From an uncultured Clostridium sp. (GTDB taxonomy: Bacteria; Bacillota; Clostridia; TANB77; CAG-508): 60,900 nt of DNA. Below the pieces are notes generated by a model. The model did not search any database, was not told the DNA's origin, and saw only the letters and a list, made by a program, of their open reading frames with translations. Each line of letters opens with the position of its first letter. The first letter of the stretch is position 1. The translations under genes and the position numbers were made by a program. Location of the stretch: contig CAZPKK010000003.1 of assembly GCA_964587175.1 (NCBI GenBank), forward strand, positions 1-60,900, in the 5' to 3' direction. This document shows positions 2,179-34,325 of the stretch, piece by piece.

Positions 2179-4935
2179 ATGGAAAATGAAAAGAAAGATT
2201 ATAGTCAAACACTTAACTTACCAAAAACAGATTTTCCTATGAGAGGAAATCTACCTGAAAAAGAGCCAGGTATCTTAAAAGATGTTTTTGAAAATAGGCT
2301 TTATGAGAAAATTCTAAAGAAAAATGAGGGGCATACAAGTTTTGTACTTCATGATGGACCTCCATATGCAAATGGAGAGATACACGCAGGACATGCACTA
2401 AATAAAATTTTAAAAGATACAATAGTTAGATATAAGTCAATGAAAGGATTTTATTCAACATATGTGCCAGGATATGATACACATGGTATGCCAACAGAAA
2501 AAAAAGCTATTGAAAAATTAGGACTAGACAGAAGTAAAATACCCGTAACAGAATTTAGAAATACATGTCAAAGTTTCACAAAAGAATATAAAGACATACA
2601 AACAGAAGGCTTCAAACGCTTAGGAGTATTAGGTGATTGGAAAAATCCATATATTACTTATGACCCTAAAATGGAAGCTAGACAAATTGGTGTATTTGGA
2701 GATATGTATAAAAAAGGATATATATATAAAGGTCTAAAACCTGTTTATTGGTGTACTGATTGTGAGACAGCCTTAGCTGAAGCAGAAATTGAATATAAAG
2801 ATGTTGAATCTACATCTATTTATGTTAAATTTCCAGTTGTAGAAGGAAAAGGACTGTTAAATGATGAGGATACTTATATTGTAATATGGACAACAACTCC
2901 TTGGACATTACCTGGAAATATGGCAATTACTGTGGGGGCAGATTTTGAATATAACTTAATAAAGACAAATGTGGGTAATTTAGTTATAGCAAGTGATTTG
3001 GTAGAAAAAGTCATGAAAATAGCTGAGATAGAGGATTATAAAATATTAAAAACATTTAAAGGTGAAGAAATCAAAGGTGTGCAATGTAGACATCCTTTCT
3101 TAGAAAGAAACTCTGTGGTTGTATTAGGGTCAGAAGATGGGGTTAATGTTACATTAGAAGAAGGAACAGGAGCTGTTCATACTGCACCGGGTTATGGTAA
3201 AGAGGATTATGCTCAAAGCCTAAAAGATAATTTGGAAATAAAAGTTGTTGTAAATGACAAAGGCGTTCAAACAGACGAAGCAGGACCTTTTGCAGGAATG
3301 TATTATGCTAAATCTGATAAAGAAATAACAAAATGGCTTGAAGAAAATGGATATTTATTAAAGTCAGTAAAAATAACACACTCATATCCACATTGTTGGA
3401 GATGTAGAAATCCAATCATATTTAGAGCAACACCACAATGGTTTGCTTCAATAGATGGTTTTAGAGATGAAGTTTTGAAATCAATAAAAACAGTTAAATG
3501 GCATCCGGTATGGGGAGAAGAAAGAATAACTGAAATGATAAAAGGTAGAAACGATTGGTGTATATCTAGGCAACGTACTTGGGGAGTTCCACTTCCAATA
3601 TTTTATTGTGAGAATTGTGATGAAGCTTATGTAACAAAAGAATCTATTGAAAAAATTCAAGATATATTTGGAAAAGAAGGTTCAAATGCATGGTGGGCAA
3701 AAGAAGTGAAAGATTTACTACCAGAAGGTGCAAAATGTGAAAAATGTGGATGTACTCATTTCAAAAAAGAAACAGATATAATGGATGTTTGGTTTGACTC
3801 AGGATCAACACATCAAGGTGTTTTAGTAGAAAGAGGATTAAGTTATCCAGCAGACATGTACCTTGAAGGAAATGATCAGTATAGAGGATGGTTCCAATCA
3901 TCACTTCTTACGTCAGTTGCTACAAAAGGAATAGCACCATATAAAGAAGTTTTAACACATGGATTTGTTACAGATGGGCAAGGAAGAAAAATGTCAAAGA
4001 GTTTAGGAAATGGTGTATCTCCAATAGATGTGTGTAATAAATACGGAGCAGATATTCTAAGACTTTGGGTATTATCAGCTGATTATTCAATGGACGTAAA
4101 CTTATCTGATGATATATTAAAAGGGATATCAGATGTTTATAGAAAAATAAGAAATACTGCAAGATATATATTAGGAAATACAAGTGATTATAATCCAGAA
4201 AACCCAGTTGCTTATGAAGATTTAATGGAAATAGATAAATGGGCTTTAACAAGACTTAACAAATTAATTCGTGATTGCAATAAAGATTATGATGAATACA
4301 ATTTTGCAAATTGTTATCATGACATAAATCAGTTTTGTGTTGTAGATATGAGCAGTTTCTACTTAGATATAATAAAAGACAGATTATATACATCTAAAGC
4401 AGATTCAAAAGAAAGAAGAGCAGCTCAAACAGTGATGTATTATATACTTGATAGTTTAGTAAAAATGTTGACACCAATGACATCATTTACAGCAGAAGAA
4501 ATTTGGAAGGCAATGAAGCATACTGAAAAAGAAAATGTAGAAAGTCCAATGCTTACAGACTATCCAGCTCCAAATGATGAGTGGGACAATAAAAATCTTT
4601 CAGAAAAATGGAAAAAGATAATAAAATTAAAAGATATAGTTTCCAAAGAATTAGAGCTTGCAAGAACAAATAAGACAATTGGAAACTCGCTAGACGCAAA
4701 AGTTACAATATATGCAGAAAATGAAGAGTATTACTTCTTAAAAGAAAATGAAGATTTGATTAAATTAGTTTTAATAGTATCTGGATTAAAAATAGAAGAA
4801 AACAAACGTAAAGAAGAAAAAATCGGCATAAAAGTAGAACATGCAGATGGTGAAAAATGTGAAAGATGTTGGATGTATGAGGAACATACAGAAGATGGAT
4901 TATGTCAAAGATGTAGAGAAGTTTTAGAGAAATAG
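2179..4935 (+). CDS. ileS: Isoleucine--tRNA ligase
   Basis: Class I aaRS signatures are present: HAGH (HIGH-type) and KMSKS. A C-terminal Cys cluster is present. AGGAGG lies upstream of ATG 2179. Confidence 0.97.
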   Translation: MENEKKDYSQTLNLPKTDFPMRGNLPEKEPGILKDVFENRLYEKILKKNEGHTSFVLHDGPPYANGEIHAGHALNKILKDTIVRYKSMKGFYSTYVPGYDTHGMPTEKKAIEKLGLDRSKIPVTEFRNTCQSFTKEYKDIQTEGFKRLGVLGDWKNPYITYDPKMEARQIGVFGDMYKKGYIYKGLKPVYWCTDCETALAEAEIEYKDVESTSIYVKFPVVEGKGLLNDEDTYIVIWTTTPWTLPGNMAITVGADFEYNLIKTNVGNLVIASDLVEKVMKIAEIEDYKILKTFKGEEIKGVQCRHPFLERNSVVVLGSEDGVNVTLEEGTGAVHTAPGYGKEDYAQSLKDNLEIKVVVNDKGVQTDEAGPFAGMYYAKSDKEITKWLEENGYLLKSVKITHSYPHCWRCRNPIIFRATPQWFASIDGFRDEVLKSIKTVKWHPVWGEERITEMIKGRNDWCISRQRTWGVPLPIFYCENCDEAYVTKESIEKIQDIFGKEGSNAWWAKEVKDLLPEGAKCEKCGCTHFKKETDIMDVWFDSGSTHQGVLVERGLSYPADMYLEGNDQYRGWFQSSLLTSVATKGIAPYKEVLTHGFVTDGQGRKMSKSLGNGVSPIDVCNKYGADILRLWVLSADYSMDVNLSDDILKGISDVYRKIRNTARYILGNTSDYNPENPVAYEDLMEIDKWALTRLNKLIRDCNKDYDEYNFANCYHDINQFCVVDMSSFYLDIIKDRLYTSKADSKERRAAQTVMYYILDSLVKMLTPMTSFTAEEIWKAMKHTEKENVESPMLTDYPAPNDEWDNKNLSEKWKKIIKLKDIVSKELELARTNKTIGNSLDAKVTIYAENEEYYFLKENEDLIKLVLIVSGLKIEENKRKEEKIGIKVEHADGEKCERCWMYEEHTEDGLCQRCREVLEK

Positions 4936-30261: not shown

Positions 30262-30290
30262 TTGACAAAGGAACTAAAAAAGATTATAAT
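30262..30290 (+). promoter_or_regulatory. Consensus sigma-A promoter for tRNA-Gly 1
   Basis: TTGACA, a 17-nt spacer, then TATAAT. Confidence 0.65.
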
Positions 30291-30313
30291 ACTAATTGTT
30301 CCGCAAAACAAAT

Positions 30314-30387
<74 letters not shown>

Positions 30388-30394
30388 AACTAAT

Positions 30395-30425
30395 AACCTC
30401 AGCAAAATGGCTGAGGTTTATTTTT
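30395..30425 (+). terminator. Intrinsic terminator after tRNA-Gly 1
   Basis: Stem aacctcagc/gctgaggtt followed by a T-run. Confidence 0.7.
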
Positions 30426-30587
30426 GAGCTCTTTGTCAATAGTTGGAGTCTTCCCTACCCCAACTAATACTATAGAACCTGAAATATTAATGATTCGGGT
30501 TCAGTTTATATAAAGATATTATAGTGAGATTTATGTAGAAAAATAAAATCAATGAAAATGATAGTCAGTAAAATTTGATGATATGAG

Positions 30588-30616
30588 TGGACAAAACATT
30601 TGCAAAATGTTATACT
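30588..30616 (+). promoter_or_regulatory. Promoter for tRNA-Gly 2
   Basis: TGGACA, a 17-nt spacer, then TATACT. Confidence 0.5.
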
Positions 30617-30627
30617 AAAACATAGAT

Positions 30628-30702
<75 letters not shown>

Positions 30703-30988: not shown

Positions 30989-32378
30989 TTAAGTACATAG
31001 TTTTATTTTCTTTGAGTAAATACGACAGTCCTTAAGTTGTTTATTTATATATCTTGTAAGAATATGTCCATATGTTTCTTTTATTTGTCTATCATCAGCA
31101 TGACCAAGTATAGTTGCAATAACAAGAAGGTCCATTCCGGCTTCAATCATTCTAGTAACAGCAGTATGTCTACACATATGAGTGTGACAACCTTTTGTAA
31201 GTTCTAGTTTTATTTCCGCTTCTCTACAAATTCTTTTAAAAATATTATTTATAGAACGATGATCTATATATTTACCATCTCGCTGACAAAACAAAAGATT
31301 TTCTTTATTATTTTGATTACTTTTTGCATTTTCTATTTGTTTTCTGATGATATCTAGCATAAGATTTTCATCAAAAATATTAAAAGGAACGAATCTTTCA
31401 TCTGGTAAACCTTGTTCAATTTTTTTACGACCAGTTTTAGTGGTCTTACCCATAATAATTTTCCCATTATCGTTAGATAAAGTTCGATTTATTATAAAAC
31501 CATTATTTTTTAAATCTATATTTTTATCAATATCAACAGCACCTAACTCTCCAATTCTTGTAGCAGATAATAATGCACATACAAATAAATTTTTTAAAGT
31601 TTCTTCATCATAATTACACTTAAAACTTTTAACTAAAGGTTTAGTTAACAAATATTTTATTAACTTTCTTTGTTCTTCTATTTCAAAAGGTTGTACAAGT
31701 TGCTTTTTCTGTAAAGAAACAGGAGTATATACTCTTAACATGGGATTATCTGAATAATATATTATTTTATCTAAAACACATTGCATAAAACCTGCTTTTA
31801 ATTTAGCTACTATTTTATCTATTTCTCCGTTGAGATAAATATCTGATAGAATTAAGGAAATCTTGAATTTCATTATAACTTACTTTTTGAACTGGTTTTT
31901 GGAAATCTGACCAATTTTCAATATGTCTATAATGATAATTGTCTTTATCTACTGTATTTTTTATGATTTTCCCTGCTTTAAACTTTGTAGATCCTATTTT
32001 TTTACATACTTCTATAATAGTAATACTATGTTTTTTTACGTAGCTTTTTGTATGAATTTTTGCTTCTACATCTAATTTTTTATCAACTGCAGCTTTTTTC
32101 TTTTCTTCATTAGCAACAGTGGTTTGTTTTTTATTTATAGAGATTTGAGCTTGATATCTGAAATAACAATAGAAGCGGTCACAATATTTTAAACAGTCAG
32201 TACATTCAACACATTTATGACATTTTGCTGATCCAGTACGATTATTACATTTACTTCTATCAATACAATTTTTACAAATATCACATTCATAATCTAATTT
32301 TTTTCGTCTAGGTATCTTTTGTATAGTATCATAGATAGAGCCTTCGCCATTAGCTCTACGTGTACCTGTATTGTTCAT
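30989..32378 (-). pseudogene. int: Tyrosine integrase with a Cys-rich N-terminal insertion, frameshifted
   Basis: The N-terminal ORF (32378-31815) starts RRANGEGSIY. The C-terminal ORF (31873-30989) carries the R...HxxR...Y catalytic region (HMCRHTAVT, LGHADDRQIKETYGHI). The frames overlap at 31815-31873. Confidence 0.85.
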
Positions 32379-32421: not shown

Positions 32422-32450
32422 TTGAAAAATTGCAGGTATTTGTATATAAT
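32422..32450 (+). promoter_or_regulatory. Sigma-A-type promoter of small unit 1
   Basis: TTGAAA, a 17-nt spacer, then TATAAT. Confidence 0.55.
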
Positions 32451-32456
32451 ACAAAC

Positions 32457-32531
32457 TGTAATCACTCAAGTGATTATGCTTTCGAGAAATGTGTCGTGTC
32501 GCCAAACAAGATTACATTTCTCGGCTTTTTT
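32457..32531 (+). ncRNA. Candidate small RNA 1 (about 75 nt)
   Basis: A promoter is followed by the small hairpin atcac/gtgat. The terminator stem cgagaaatgt/acatttctcg (32483-32523) is followed by a U-tract. No SD-led ORF is present. Confidence 0.45.
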
Positions 32532-32568
32532 AGTAATATTTTTTTGTTTTTTGAATATAATAAAACTA

Positions 32569-32606
32569 GTCAAACGTTTGACAAGTTAAATATTATTTGC
32601 TATAAT
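32569..32606 (+). promoter_or_regulatory. Consensus promoter of small unit 2 with an overlapping 14-bp palindrome
   Basis: TTGACA (32578) is followed by a 17-nt spacer and TATAAT (32601). The perfect palindrome GTCAAACGTTTGAC at 32569-32582 covers the -35. Confidence 0.6.
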
Positions 32607-32612
32607 ATATTT

Positions 32613-32683
32613 AACTTTCCCACTACTTATAGTAGTCGGGCGTCAGAAGACTTTGGAGAACTCTAGCAGTTCTCCTTTATTTT
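32613..32683 (+). ncRNA. Candidate small RNA 2 (about 70 nt), convergent with the MazF-fold gene
   Basis: It has the hairpin cccactact/agtagtcggg. The terminator ggagaact-ctagc-agttctcc is followed by a U-tract that overlaps the stop codon of ORF 32677-33360(-). Confidence 0.45.
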
Positions 32684-33360
32684 GTGAAAAATTTTATTAT
32701 TCCGTCATCTAATAAATCTAAACTATTTCTTGATAAACGAACTTTTCTTAATATTTCATCGTCAAATATACGTTGTTTACTTATTGTTGTTATCTGATTT
32801 ATTAAAGCAATACTGCCTATTTTCATTTTTGATATTTCATCTTTTATTTTTTTTACATATTCAAAATCAGTTGTAAATTGCTTAACTTGTTCTGTAGGTA
32901 AACTCCAAATATCAGTATATTTATTTGAAAGTTTTTCAATTTCATTTGAATATAATGTATTTAAAGTATCATATATTTCATTACCTAAATCTATTGAAGA
33001 TTTAGGATATTTCTTATTCTTCTTTGAGGTTAGAGGAATTATATTTAATGTTCCATTCTTAGGATTATCATATTTGTCTAAAACGACACAATAATGTAAA
33101 CCTCCAAGCTCATGTCCTATATTAAAACCTAAATTAGCTTTTATTATACTTCCTCGTTTAAAAACGATAAGTTTTTTAGTATCAAATGTCTTTTCCTCAT
33201 CATGATAATTAGCATAGTCATTAATCCAATAAGCTAATAAATGACTAGTCTTATATTCTTTCATATCTATGTGTTTTAGAAAAGATACATCAAGTCTATT
33301 TAAAGAATTATCTTTATGTATTATTGCTTTATCTTTTAATATATCATCATCATTTTTCAA
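32677..33360 (-). CDS. Oversized MazF/PemK-fold protein (227 aa)
   Basis: The blocks FKRGSIIKANLGFNIGHELGGLHYCVVL..NIIPLTS and SIALINQITTISKQRI parallel B. subtilis NdoA ([43 protein letters not shown]). Confidence 0.6.
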   Translation of the reverse strand: MKNDDDILKDKAIIHKDNSLNRLDVSFLKHIDMKEYKTSHLLAYWINDYANYHDEEKTFDTKKLIVFKRGSIIKANLGFNIGHELGGLHYCVVLDKYDNPKNGTLNIIPLTSKKNKKYPKSSIDLGNEIYDTLNTLYSNEIEKLSNKYTDIWSLPTEQVKQFTTDFEYVKKIKDEISKMKIGSIALINQITTISKQRIFDDEILRKVRLSRNSLDLLDDGIIKFFTK

Positions 33361-33385
33361 AGTTATTCACCTTTTTCATAAATTT

Positions 33386-33637
33386 TTATTTTACTTTCCA
33401 ATTATAACCACAGTCTTGACATACGGCCATACTAGAATGTTTTGTAATTATCTTTTGATCCTTACGACCAAATAGTTTGCCTAGTAACATAGGGATTGTA
33501 AGAAAAAACCATAATAGAGGTCTCCACCACCAACCTATAAAGATCCAATAGAAAATGCTATGATGTTTATTTTTTAGTTGACTTTCTGATACCATTTGTA
33601 CATTAACATTTTCACTTCCACATTTAAGACATTTCAT
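33386..33637 (-). CDS. Zinc-ribbon membrane protein
   Basis: An N-terminal CxxC and a C-terminal CxxC flank a Trp-rich hydrophobic core (FYWIFIGWWWRPLLWFFLTIPMLL). Confidence 0.55.
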   Translation of the reverse strand: MKCLKCGSENVNVQMVSESQLKNKHHSIFYWIFIGWWWRPLLWFFLTIPMLLGKLFGRKDQKIITKHSSMAVCQDCGYNWKVK

Positions 33638-33656: not shown

Positions 33657-34325
33657 TTATTTAAACATACTTGTGATTTCAGCCTTTATTACTTTTCCTA
33701 TAATTTGGAAATTTCTTGTTTTCATTTCTTCTTCAGTAAGATTTATTACAGGATAATATGGATTTATAGACTGTAACTGAAGTATTTCTTTATCTTTTAC
33801 TAATTTTCTTATTAGAATCAAACTTTCATCTAAACAAATTAAAAAATAATAATTATTTTCATAAGTGTTTTGCCTACAAACTATAACAATATCATCTTTT
33901 CCGAGCATAGGAAGAAGAGAGTCATCGTCTCTTATTTCATAAGCAAAGTATTCTTTATCGCTATCTAAATTAAAATTTGAATATATATAATGATTAAAAT
34001 TATCAACTATAAATTTATTGTCTTTAAATTCAATATTATGGATTAATGGTATTTTATCGTTAATTTGATAAACCGAATCATTAAAAAAAGAATCTACAAA
34101 ATTAACATACCCACAAACTTCCATTAATTCTTCATATGTTGTAACTCCCTTCGAAGCTTTTGAGATTTTTTCTAATATTCTAGGAGAGGGCGGAGTCGAT
34201 TTTTTTTTGTTAATAATTCTTGACAAATAACCTGCATCAACGTTTGATAATCGTGCAAATTCATTTAAAGACATATTAGATTGACACTTTTTTAAAATTT
34301 CTATAAATTTTTTTTGATTATACAT
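33657..34325 (-). CDS. CI-like repressor (XRE HTH plus S24 peptidase-like domain)
   Basis: The HTH is MSLNEFARLSNVDAGYLSRIINKK. The C-terminal domain has Ser (DDSLLPML) and Lys (LIRKLV) 38 aa apart, as in LexA/CI autoproteases. Confidence 0.8.
   Translation of the reverse strand: MYNQKKFIEILKKCQSNMSLNEFARLSNVDAGYLSRIINKKKSTPPSPRILEKISKASKGVTTYEELMEVCGYVNFVDSFFNDSVYQINDKIPLIHNIEFKDNKFIVDNFNHYIYSNFNLDSDKEYFAYEIRDDDSLLPMLGKDDIVIVCRQNTYENNYYFLICLDESLILIRKLVKDKEILQLQSINPYYPVINLTEEEMKTRNFQIIGKVIKAEITSMFK

Follow-up and report, generated by a model that had tools for sequence, protein, structure and literature searches.

A long PemK/MazF-family protein of Firmicutes prophages and its neighbouring hairpin RNA: a candidate type III-like RNA-antitoxin module

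Protein and RNA genes at the locus

We analysed a stretch of 60,900 nucleotides (nt) from an uncultured Clostridium sp. (contig CAZPKK010000003.1). This whole stretch is referred to as the window and all positions are those of the whole stretch. The DNA belongs to an AT-rich Firmicutes genome. At the left end of a prophage-like element it carries a gene for a long protein of the MazF/PemK fold, 227 amino acids (aa) in length, accompanied by a gene for a small structured RNA. The 227-aa gene lies in the lysogeny module, between a tyrosine integrase and a cI-like repressor, where a preliminary description made from the letters had placed it. A 300-nt gap separates it from the integrase. The features of the module and of the genes around it, including the open reading frames (ORFs) and a helix-turn-helix (HTH) repressor, are as follows:

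32677-33360, (-): long MazF/PemK-fold protein, 227 aa, TTG start (Pfam PF02452; phrog_1412; AlphaFold/Foldseek; invariant residues)
32613-32684, (+): small structured RNA of about 70 nt (5' end inferred from the promoter; covariance-model match 32609-32681)
32578-32606, (+): RNA promoter TTGACA-17-TGcTATAAT, perfect consensus with extended -10 (-35 box 32578-32583, -10 box 32601-32606)
32619-32640, (+): hairpin 1, bulged, with an outer CCC/GGG helix, an internal loop and a covarying inner 5-bp helix
32641-32654, (+): linker CGUCAGAAGACUUU, conserved and mostly single-stranded (family consensus A-A-R-W-G-A-Y-U-U-U)
32655-32683, (+): intrinsic terminator, 8-bp stem GGAGAACU/AGUUCUCC and U-tract (8 of 8 stem pairs covary)
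32583-32617: perfect 11-bp inverted repeat AAGTTAAATAT-N13-ATATTTAACTT, bracketing the -10 box and the transcription start
32569-32582: palindrome GTCAAACGTTTGAC (GTCAA-N-TTGAC), overlapping the -35 box
33386-33637, (-): 83-aa CxxC...CxxC membrane ORF, Zn-ribbon type (Zn-ribbon matches weak)
33657-34325, (-): cI-type repressor with HTH and S24-peptidase domains
30989-32378, (-): tyrosine integrase, split in two ORFs

The 227-aa protein passes the Pfam PemK_toxin profile (PF02452) with an E-value of 1.6e-11 and 44.8 bits against a cut-off of 23.1. The match falls into two stretches, the same blocks which had been aligned to MazF by eye in the preliminary description. The protein also matches phrog_1412 over its full length (E 2.5e-45). 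The label of this family, "antitoxin mazE-like", is probably wrong, since it is the toxin that Pfam matches. AlphaFold modelling with 20 homologs gave a model (mean predicted local distance difference test score, pLDDT, of 75; 80-94 in the barrel and the insert) in which two N-terminal helices of low confidence precede a MazF-type barrel. Residues 128-178 form a helical hairpin of high confidence, and there is a helix at the C-terminus. When the model was compared with the PDB by Foldseek, the top 50 matches were all MazF proteins, from Staphylococcus aureus, Bacillus subtilis, Mycobacterium tuberculosis, Escherichia coli and related species. The template modelling (TM) score was about 0.8 normalised on the target, with E-values down to about 6e-7 for the S. 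aureus and B. subtilis MazF. The MazF fold that had been proposed from the letters is thus borne out by both the profile and the model.

The N-terminal extension of about 65 aa (approximately residues 1-65) and the insert of about 50 aa are both conserved. Conservation of the extension is very strong, and an acidic and aromatic stretch, YWINDYANYHDEE, lies directly N-terminal to the barrel. These two additions, for which the protein had been described as unusual in size, are real and make it twice as long as canonical MazF, but within phrog_1412 its size is ordinary, since the homologs have 220-290 aa. The invariant T111 aligns with Thr48 of B. subtilis MazF, while an invariant histidine, H89, occupies the position of Arg25. 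In the published structure of B. subtilis MazF with RNA, 4MDX, R25 and T48 are reportedly the catalytic residues. Judged by this alignment, the putative active site would consist of H89, replacing the catalytic arginine, and T111. The RNA-groove motif of B. subtilis MazF aligns with the invariant QITTISKQR. On the basis of the alignments and the model, the 227-aa protein is presumed to be an endoribonuclease toxin.

The family is large, with 1589 matches in a 90%-identity collection and 1203 clusters at 50% identity. Typical members share the N-terminal segment and the motifs GGLHY and QITTISK, and have a coiled-coil insert whose length varies. They are found in gut Clostridia and in prophages of Staphylococcus and Streptococcus. 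Prophage examples with a long PemK/MazF gene beside the integrase are the S. aureus phages 85, 92 and phiMR25, as well as pneumococcal, S. pyogenes and S. suis phages. In phage 85 the gene is ORF019 and in phage 92 it is ORF020. Across temperate phages the current labels of the gene are inconsistent: "antitoxin MazE-like", "PemK-like", "repressor" and "pathogenicity island protein".

The RNA gene is convergent with the toxin gene. Its promoter is the best promoter match in the 5.5-kb region. In the entire 60.9 kb two perfect consensus promoters were seen against 0.06 expected, and the other one drives tRNA-Gly. TTGACA and the TGn extended -10 are retained in 53 of 53 distinct convergent homologous promoters. 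The preliminary description had placed a convergent small unit here, and its consensus promoter, -35 palindrome and terminator were all found again at the same positions. The terminator stem (32655-32675) is followed by a U-tract (32676-32683) which, as had also been noted, overlaps the stop codon of the MazF-like gene (32677-32679).

The predicted 72-nt RNA folds with -22.3 kcal/mol (z = -3.7). R1, the covariance model of the RNA, has one significant match in the window, with 72.2 bits and an E-value of 4e-15. The linker at 32641-32654 is a candidate site for protein binding or cleavage, and a similar motif, AAGAAGAC, is found in loci with a co-directional RNA gene and in the Streptococcus phage Javan166. 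Rfam 15 contained nothing covering 32569-32690 at E-values up to 10, and nothing covering the equivalent RNAs of loci L093-L095 at E-values up to 1. We also considered a small peptide encoded in the RNA and rejected it, since an AUG is present in some lineages only (alignment A2).

Two palindromic elements accompany the RNA promoter. The inverted repeat is retained in 48 of the 53 distinct promoters, with a compensatory variant (AAATAA/TTATTT). The palindrome at the -35 box keeps both of its arms in the relatives, with a spacer of 2-7 nt. These elements may be operators, or they may end or structure a read-through toxin transcript as RNA hairpins.

Conserved pairing of the toxin gene and the RNA

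We compared the locus with 92 loci from metagenomes and GTDB genomes, mostly metagenome-assembled genomes of gut Clostridia. Conservation is higher in the approximately 110 nt past the stop codon than in the protein itself. At 61% protein identity this DNA is still nearly identical and the differences are compensatory changes in the two stems. In 81 of 84 sources, at protein identities of 55-100%, R1 found a single RNA, which abuts the gene; the three sources without a match are contigs that end at the gene. In the covariation analysis 97.6% of the cells were paired, and 17 of the 18 pairs had changed on both sides. None of 500 shuffles reached the observed values, and slid registers gave 37-69% paired cells. 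The alignment used here was fitted to R1; the compensatory changes are visible in the raw sequences too.

The pairing was also tested in reverse, by scanning with degenerate DNA patterns and filtering the results with R1, which identified 12 of 15 matches in IMG/VR and 6 of 45 in metagenome contigs as chance matches. All three true RNA matches in IMG/VR adjoin the gene. Among the metagenome contigs, 32 of 36 evaluable RNA matches adjoin the gene or its remnant, and the other four (L132, L133, L143 and L144) are orphan RNAs without the gene. The orphan RNA of L144 sits between an alaS-like gene and an HD-domain gene. In several loci the RNA is intact beside a damaged toxin gene: in L155 (2784-3325) an internal deletion has removed the catalytic core, and in L131, L134 and L137 the gene is reduced to its last 45 codons. 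Decay of the toxin beside a retained RNA is the usual pattern of toxin-antitoxin modules, and these sequences would support such a module indirectly.

The genes upstream of the toxin show no comparable constancy. No MazE/PemI-like ORF precedes the 227-aa gene, and no match to MazE, PemI or AbrB was found. The Zn-ribbon ORF has no homolog in any of the 92 related loci. It ends 25 nt before the 227-aa gene, and from this spacing and the place in the repressor operon the toxin gene would be expressed in the lysogen. Between the cI-type repressor and the MazF-like gene is a slot whose cargo varies. Here it is filled by the Zn-ribbon ORF, and in the closest relatives, at 88% identity, by an Ltp-type lipoprotein (L166 2569-3279); the Ltp family is linked to superinfection exclusion. 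In another group it holds an M78-like 137-aa protein (L001 3560-3973), and in a third group it is empty, so that the repressor gene directly abuts the MazF-like gene.

Most relatives at 55-60% identity lie outside prophages, where the gene and the RNA stand alone among housekeeping genes such as those for a dipeptidase, ftsY, UDP-glucose pyrophosphorylase and phosphoglucomutase. These stand-alone loci have 100-400 nt of non-coding DNA upstream, no conserved upstream ORF, and their own toxin-gene promoter, TTGCAT-17-TGaTATAAT, with a palindrome in the spacer (L023-L086; for example L026 ~3480-3540 and L033 ~3910-3970). The palindrome, AAACAA(A/C)(T/G)GTTT, resembles the CAAACGTTTG core at the RNA promoter of the window, and this likeness in sequence may reflect a shared autoregulation.

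Given the variable slot and the stand-alone loci, the conserved unit therefore consists of the protein and the RNA only. We rejected a hidden protein antitoxin on account of the varying upstream genes (Zn-ribbon, Ltp, M78-like, HTH or none) and the stand-alone loci. The preliminary description had seen no protein antitoxin at this locus, and across the relatives there is no conserved protein partner either. It had counted the Zn-ribbon membrane ORF as part of the cassette, which we rule out, and had suggested a database check on whether protein gene, RNA and Zn-ribbon ORF co-occur: the first two pair as described above, but the third is absent from the relatives.

Several other features surround the module. 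The integrase consists of overlapping ORFs in different frames, 31815-32378 (187 aa, a Cys-rich N-terminal part) and 30989-31873 (294 aa, with the Phage_integrase domain), while the integrases of the relatives are single ORFs of 371-436 aa. The split could be a frameshift, a pseudogene or a sequencing error. Just outside the integrase are two tRNA-Gly(UCC) genes on the (+) strand, 30314-30387 and 30628-30701, which lie 314 nt apart. A perfect consensus promoter at 30262-30290 precedes the first of them, and the region 30262-30701 is probably the attachment region of the prophage. Between the integrase and the RNA gene, at 32422-32532 on the (+) strand, is a second small transcription unit with a promoter TTGAAA-17-TATAAT (11 of 12 matches), a hairpin and a terminator with a long stem. 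Its RNA of about 75 nt folds with -24.4 kcal/mol (z = -4.4). This RNA would be antisense to an integrase leader starting from a promoter-like site on the minus strand, 32584-32557. In the Streptococcus phages Javan166 and K13 the Rfam small RNA Spy779816 (RF02589) is found on the antisense strand at the same relative position (L093 3307-3393 and L095 3245-3328). A megablast search of the 5.3-kb region against phages gave no near-identical DNA.

Orientation of the RNA gene in clostridial loci and distant phages

Most clostridial loci resemble the window in that the RNA gene and the toxin gene converge, with the RNA terminator touching or overlapping the stop codon. In five loci (L087, L088, L089, L090 and L092) the RNA gene is co-directional and lies 40-120 nt downstream of the stop codon, where it was recognised by the order of promoter, hairpin, AAGAAGAY-UUU linker and terminator. 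In four convergent loci (L020, L054, L057 and L060) the RNA is set apart from the stop codon by an insertion of 70-170 nt.

We then inspected seven distant homologs, from the Streptococcus phages Javan166, K13 and Javan549, the satellite Javan387 and the Staphylococcus phages 92, phiST9-C and BM31. All seven have a co-directional unit of promoter, one or more hairpins and terminator right after the stop codon. The gene order is repressor, long MazF, a gap of 160-280 nt and integrase, with the exception of Javan387, whose annotated neighbours are neither repressor nor integrase. We recognised these RNAs by eye, and a repeat finder picked out the repeats in four of them. Two hairpins are present in the RNA of five of the seven. 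In four of these five the repeat finder reported direct repeats of 24-28 nt, spaced 28-38 nt; the two hairpins of Javan549 were read by eye and the repeat finder reported none there. The two hairpin copies differ by compensatory changes, for example GCCGC...GCGGC versus GTCGC...GCGAC, and the loop UGAAAYAUUU or the 3' flank AUAAMG is unchanged. By analogy, the two-hairpin phage RNAs resemble a miniature ToxI array. When applied to the Staphylococcus and Streptococcus phage RNAs, R1 detected none of them (best E 0.34), and the partner RNA therefore diverges along with the protein lineage.

The annotation of the RNA region is uneven. In GenBank phage records, coding sequences called "phage protein" or "hypothetical protein" overlap it in L095 (3109-3240, (-)) and L105 (2215-2526), and they are probably spurious calls. 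Among 30 of 33 matching records, the RNA region of the Staphylococcus phages is mostly unannotated or called "terminator", and four records carry a hypothetical-protein call.

The pairing of gene and RNA is thus independent of orientation and of the neighbouring genes. Duplex energies of the RNA with the translation-initiation region of the toxin gave z-scores of about 0, and the longest Watson-Crick runs between the co-directional RNAs and their own toxin mRNAs were equal to those of shuffled controls. Since the orientation flips and the complementarity does not exceed chance, a trans-acting partner of the type III kind is a better reading than a cis-antisense antitoxin. As far as sequence comparison goes, these results speak against an obligate cis-antisense (type I) mechanism and for recognition of the RNA shape by the protein.

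Mechanism, rival explanations and relation to known systems

Our proposal for the locus, to which we give a probability of about 0.55, is a type III-like RNA-antitoxin module of two genes that is complete in itself and whose toxin is a true member of the PemK/MazF family. The RNA of about 70 nt would be made in excess from its own very strong promoter. With hairpin 1 and the conserved single-stranded linker, which is rich in A, G and U, it would bind directly to the protein and keep the nuclease inactive. The short-lived RNA would decay once its synthesis stops, which could happen through loss of the element or when host transcription is shut off by an infecting phage. The freed nuclease could then cut cellular and phage RNA, leading to abortive infection or post-segregational arrest. 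In the window the toxin gene belongs to the repressor (lysogeny) operon of the prophage, so the module would serve to protect the lysogen or to keep it stable. A secondary layer of antisense or transcriptional-interference control may come with the convergent layout, outside the core mechanism. A broader version of the proposal, for which we would put the chances a little short of even, is that the long PemK/MazF proteins of Firmicutes prophages and their chromosomal copies form a large unrecognised class of RNA-antitoxin systems in abortive infection or addiction. In that class a lineage-specific hairpin RNA would replace MazE, and the N-terminal domain and the coiled-coil insert would be the parts for RNA docking or phage sensing.

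Several observations weigh against the proposed module. The RNA in the window is a single hairpin without repeats and lies downstream with its own promoter, unlike the RNA of classic type III loci. The exchange of the catalytic arginine for an invariant histidine means that the activity may differ or be absent, and scans of the 227-aa protein with PADLOC and NCBIfam gave no match. The acidic and aromatic N-terminal segment could be an inhibitory domain acting in cis, or a sensor domain, and the RNA would then not be the antitoxin. The orphan RNAs could mean that the RNA has a function of its own, and the conserved inverted repeat at the RNA promoter finds no explanation in our proposal. Finally, the convergent overlap in the window genuinely permits an antisense mechanism.

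The last point takes up the preliminary description, which had seen in the locus the 3'-overlap antisense geometry of type I systems. In such a mechanism the RNA would pair with the 3' end or the 3' untranslated region of the toxin mRNA, and toxin synthesis would be limited by RNase III cleavage or by transcriptional interference. The window has this geometry, and so have most clostridial relatives, in which the terminator meets the stop codon. Moreover, there is no good terminator on the toxin strand before the RNA gene, and therefore a read-through toxin mRNA would be fully complementary to the RNA. However, the five co-directional clostridial loci have lost the geometry, as have the seven Staphylococcus and Streptococcus phages examined, and the insertions in L020, L054, L057 and L060 separate the RNA from the stop codon. 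Neither the translation-initiation region nor the whole mRNA is complementary to the RNA in trans above the level of shuffled controls, and covarying stems with conserved loops and linker point to recognition of shape and not to complementarity. We therefore regard the antisense mechanism as quite unlikely. It is also unlikely, in our estimate, that the RNA is a cofactor, substrate or regulator, which is to say that the MazF-fold protein processes or uses it in a ribonucleoprotein, or that a prophage regulatory RNA is merely kept beside the gene, with the N-terminal domain acting in self-inhibition or as a sensor. The very strong conservation of the N-terminal extension with YWINDYANYHDEE, the replacement of the catalytic arginine by histidine and the orphan RNAs would all fit this explanation, and the conserved inverted repeat over the RNA promoter suggests a regulated rather than a constitutive synthesis. 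Against it speak the scattered stand-alone pairs and the decay of the toxin beside an intact RNA, which are typical of toxin-antitoxin modules, and the divergence of the RNA sequence with the protein lineage, as expected of cognate partners.

A canonical type II system, in which the adjacent HTH/repressor gene or an unannotated small ORF would encode an overlooked protein antitoxin, is very improbable. Its best evidence is an HTH gene which ends 1 nt before the start codon of the MazF-like gene in L007-L012 and L021. However, this HTH protein is the prophage repressor, divergent from a cro-like gene, and elsewhere its place is taken by unrelated genes or by nothing. The promoter and non-coding upstream DNA of the stand-alone loci leave no conserved ORF for an antitoxin, in line with the missing MazE, PemI and AbrB matches.

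Returning to the proposed RNA-antitoxin module, the closest parallel among known systems would be type III (ToxIN, CptIN, TenpIN and AbiQ). There, as the sequence suggests here, a protein with an endoribonuclease fold adjoins a non-coding RNA gene and has no protein antitoxin. ToxN and AbiQ have a fold that is distantly MazF/Kid-like. Type III systems are carried on mobile elements and act in abortive infection, and the present module is partly found in prophages. Two tandem hairpin repeats, a further likeness, occur only in the Staphylococcus and Streptococcus relatives, while the RNA of the window has no repeats. Unlike in type III, the toxin is a member of the Pfam PemK/MazF family and not a ToxN, and it has the N-terminal domain and the coiled-coil insert. 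The RNA gene lies downstream in either orientation with its own promoter and terminator, whereas the classic RNA is an array of tandem repeats that the toxin processes, encoded upstream of the toxin gene in the same operon with a terminator between the two.

With the type II systems MazEF and PemIK (B. subtilis EndoA/YdcE, S. aureus MazF) the protein shares the fold, the Pfam family, the RNA-groove motifs and the catalytic threonine. It differs from them in the lack of MazE or PemI, the doubled size, the invariant histidine in place of the catalytic arginine and the RNA partner. The type I pairs txpA/RatA, bsrG/SR4 and SprA1/SprA1AS of Bacillus and Staphylococcus have a 3' overlap, and the convergent RNA of the window likewise overlaps the toxin gene at its 3' end. 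However, the toxin is a 227-aa soluble protein and not a small hydrophobic membrane peptide, the family as a whole does not retain the overlap, and the co-directional members have no complementarity; SymE/SymR is an example of a type I system with a protein nuclease. We also considered SprY/SprX of the S. aureus phage phi12 as possible known equivalents and rejected them, as we found no evidence that they are the same locus.

Also among the closest systems by mechanism would be AbiF/RCd22 of a Clostridioides difficile prophage, in which an Abi protein is neutralised by a structured non-coding RNA with two conserved hairpin motifs (PMC12373285). RCd22 acts in cis and in trans through direct binding of the RNA to the protein (PMC12373285). 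AbiF is of the Abi_2/HEPN type and not a MazF, and the two RNA families are unrelated. AbiF/RCd22 is proven by experiment, whereas the present module is proposed from sequence and predicted structure.

In an incomplete full-text collection of the literature we found nothing linking long PemK/MazF proteins to an RNA partner; the papers retrieved were reviews or dealt with unrelated systems.

MazF/PemK is the textbook type II toxin, a type defined by its protein antitoxin. If it is true that a large branch of this family has dropped the protein antitoxin, gained two domains and coevolved with an RNA, the family of a toxin would no longer tell the type of its antitoxin, and a new family of RNA antitoxins would be added. 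The result would also provide a function for a gene that is inconsistently annotated in temperate phages of major pathogens and of gut Clostridia, with a bearing on prophage-encoded phage resistance, which matters for phage therapy, and on prophage stability.

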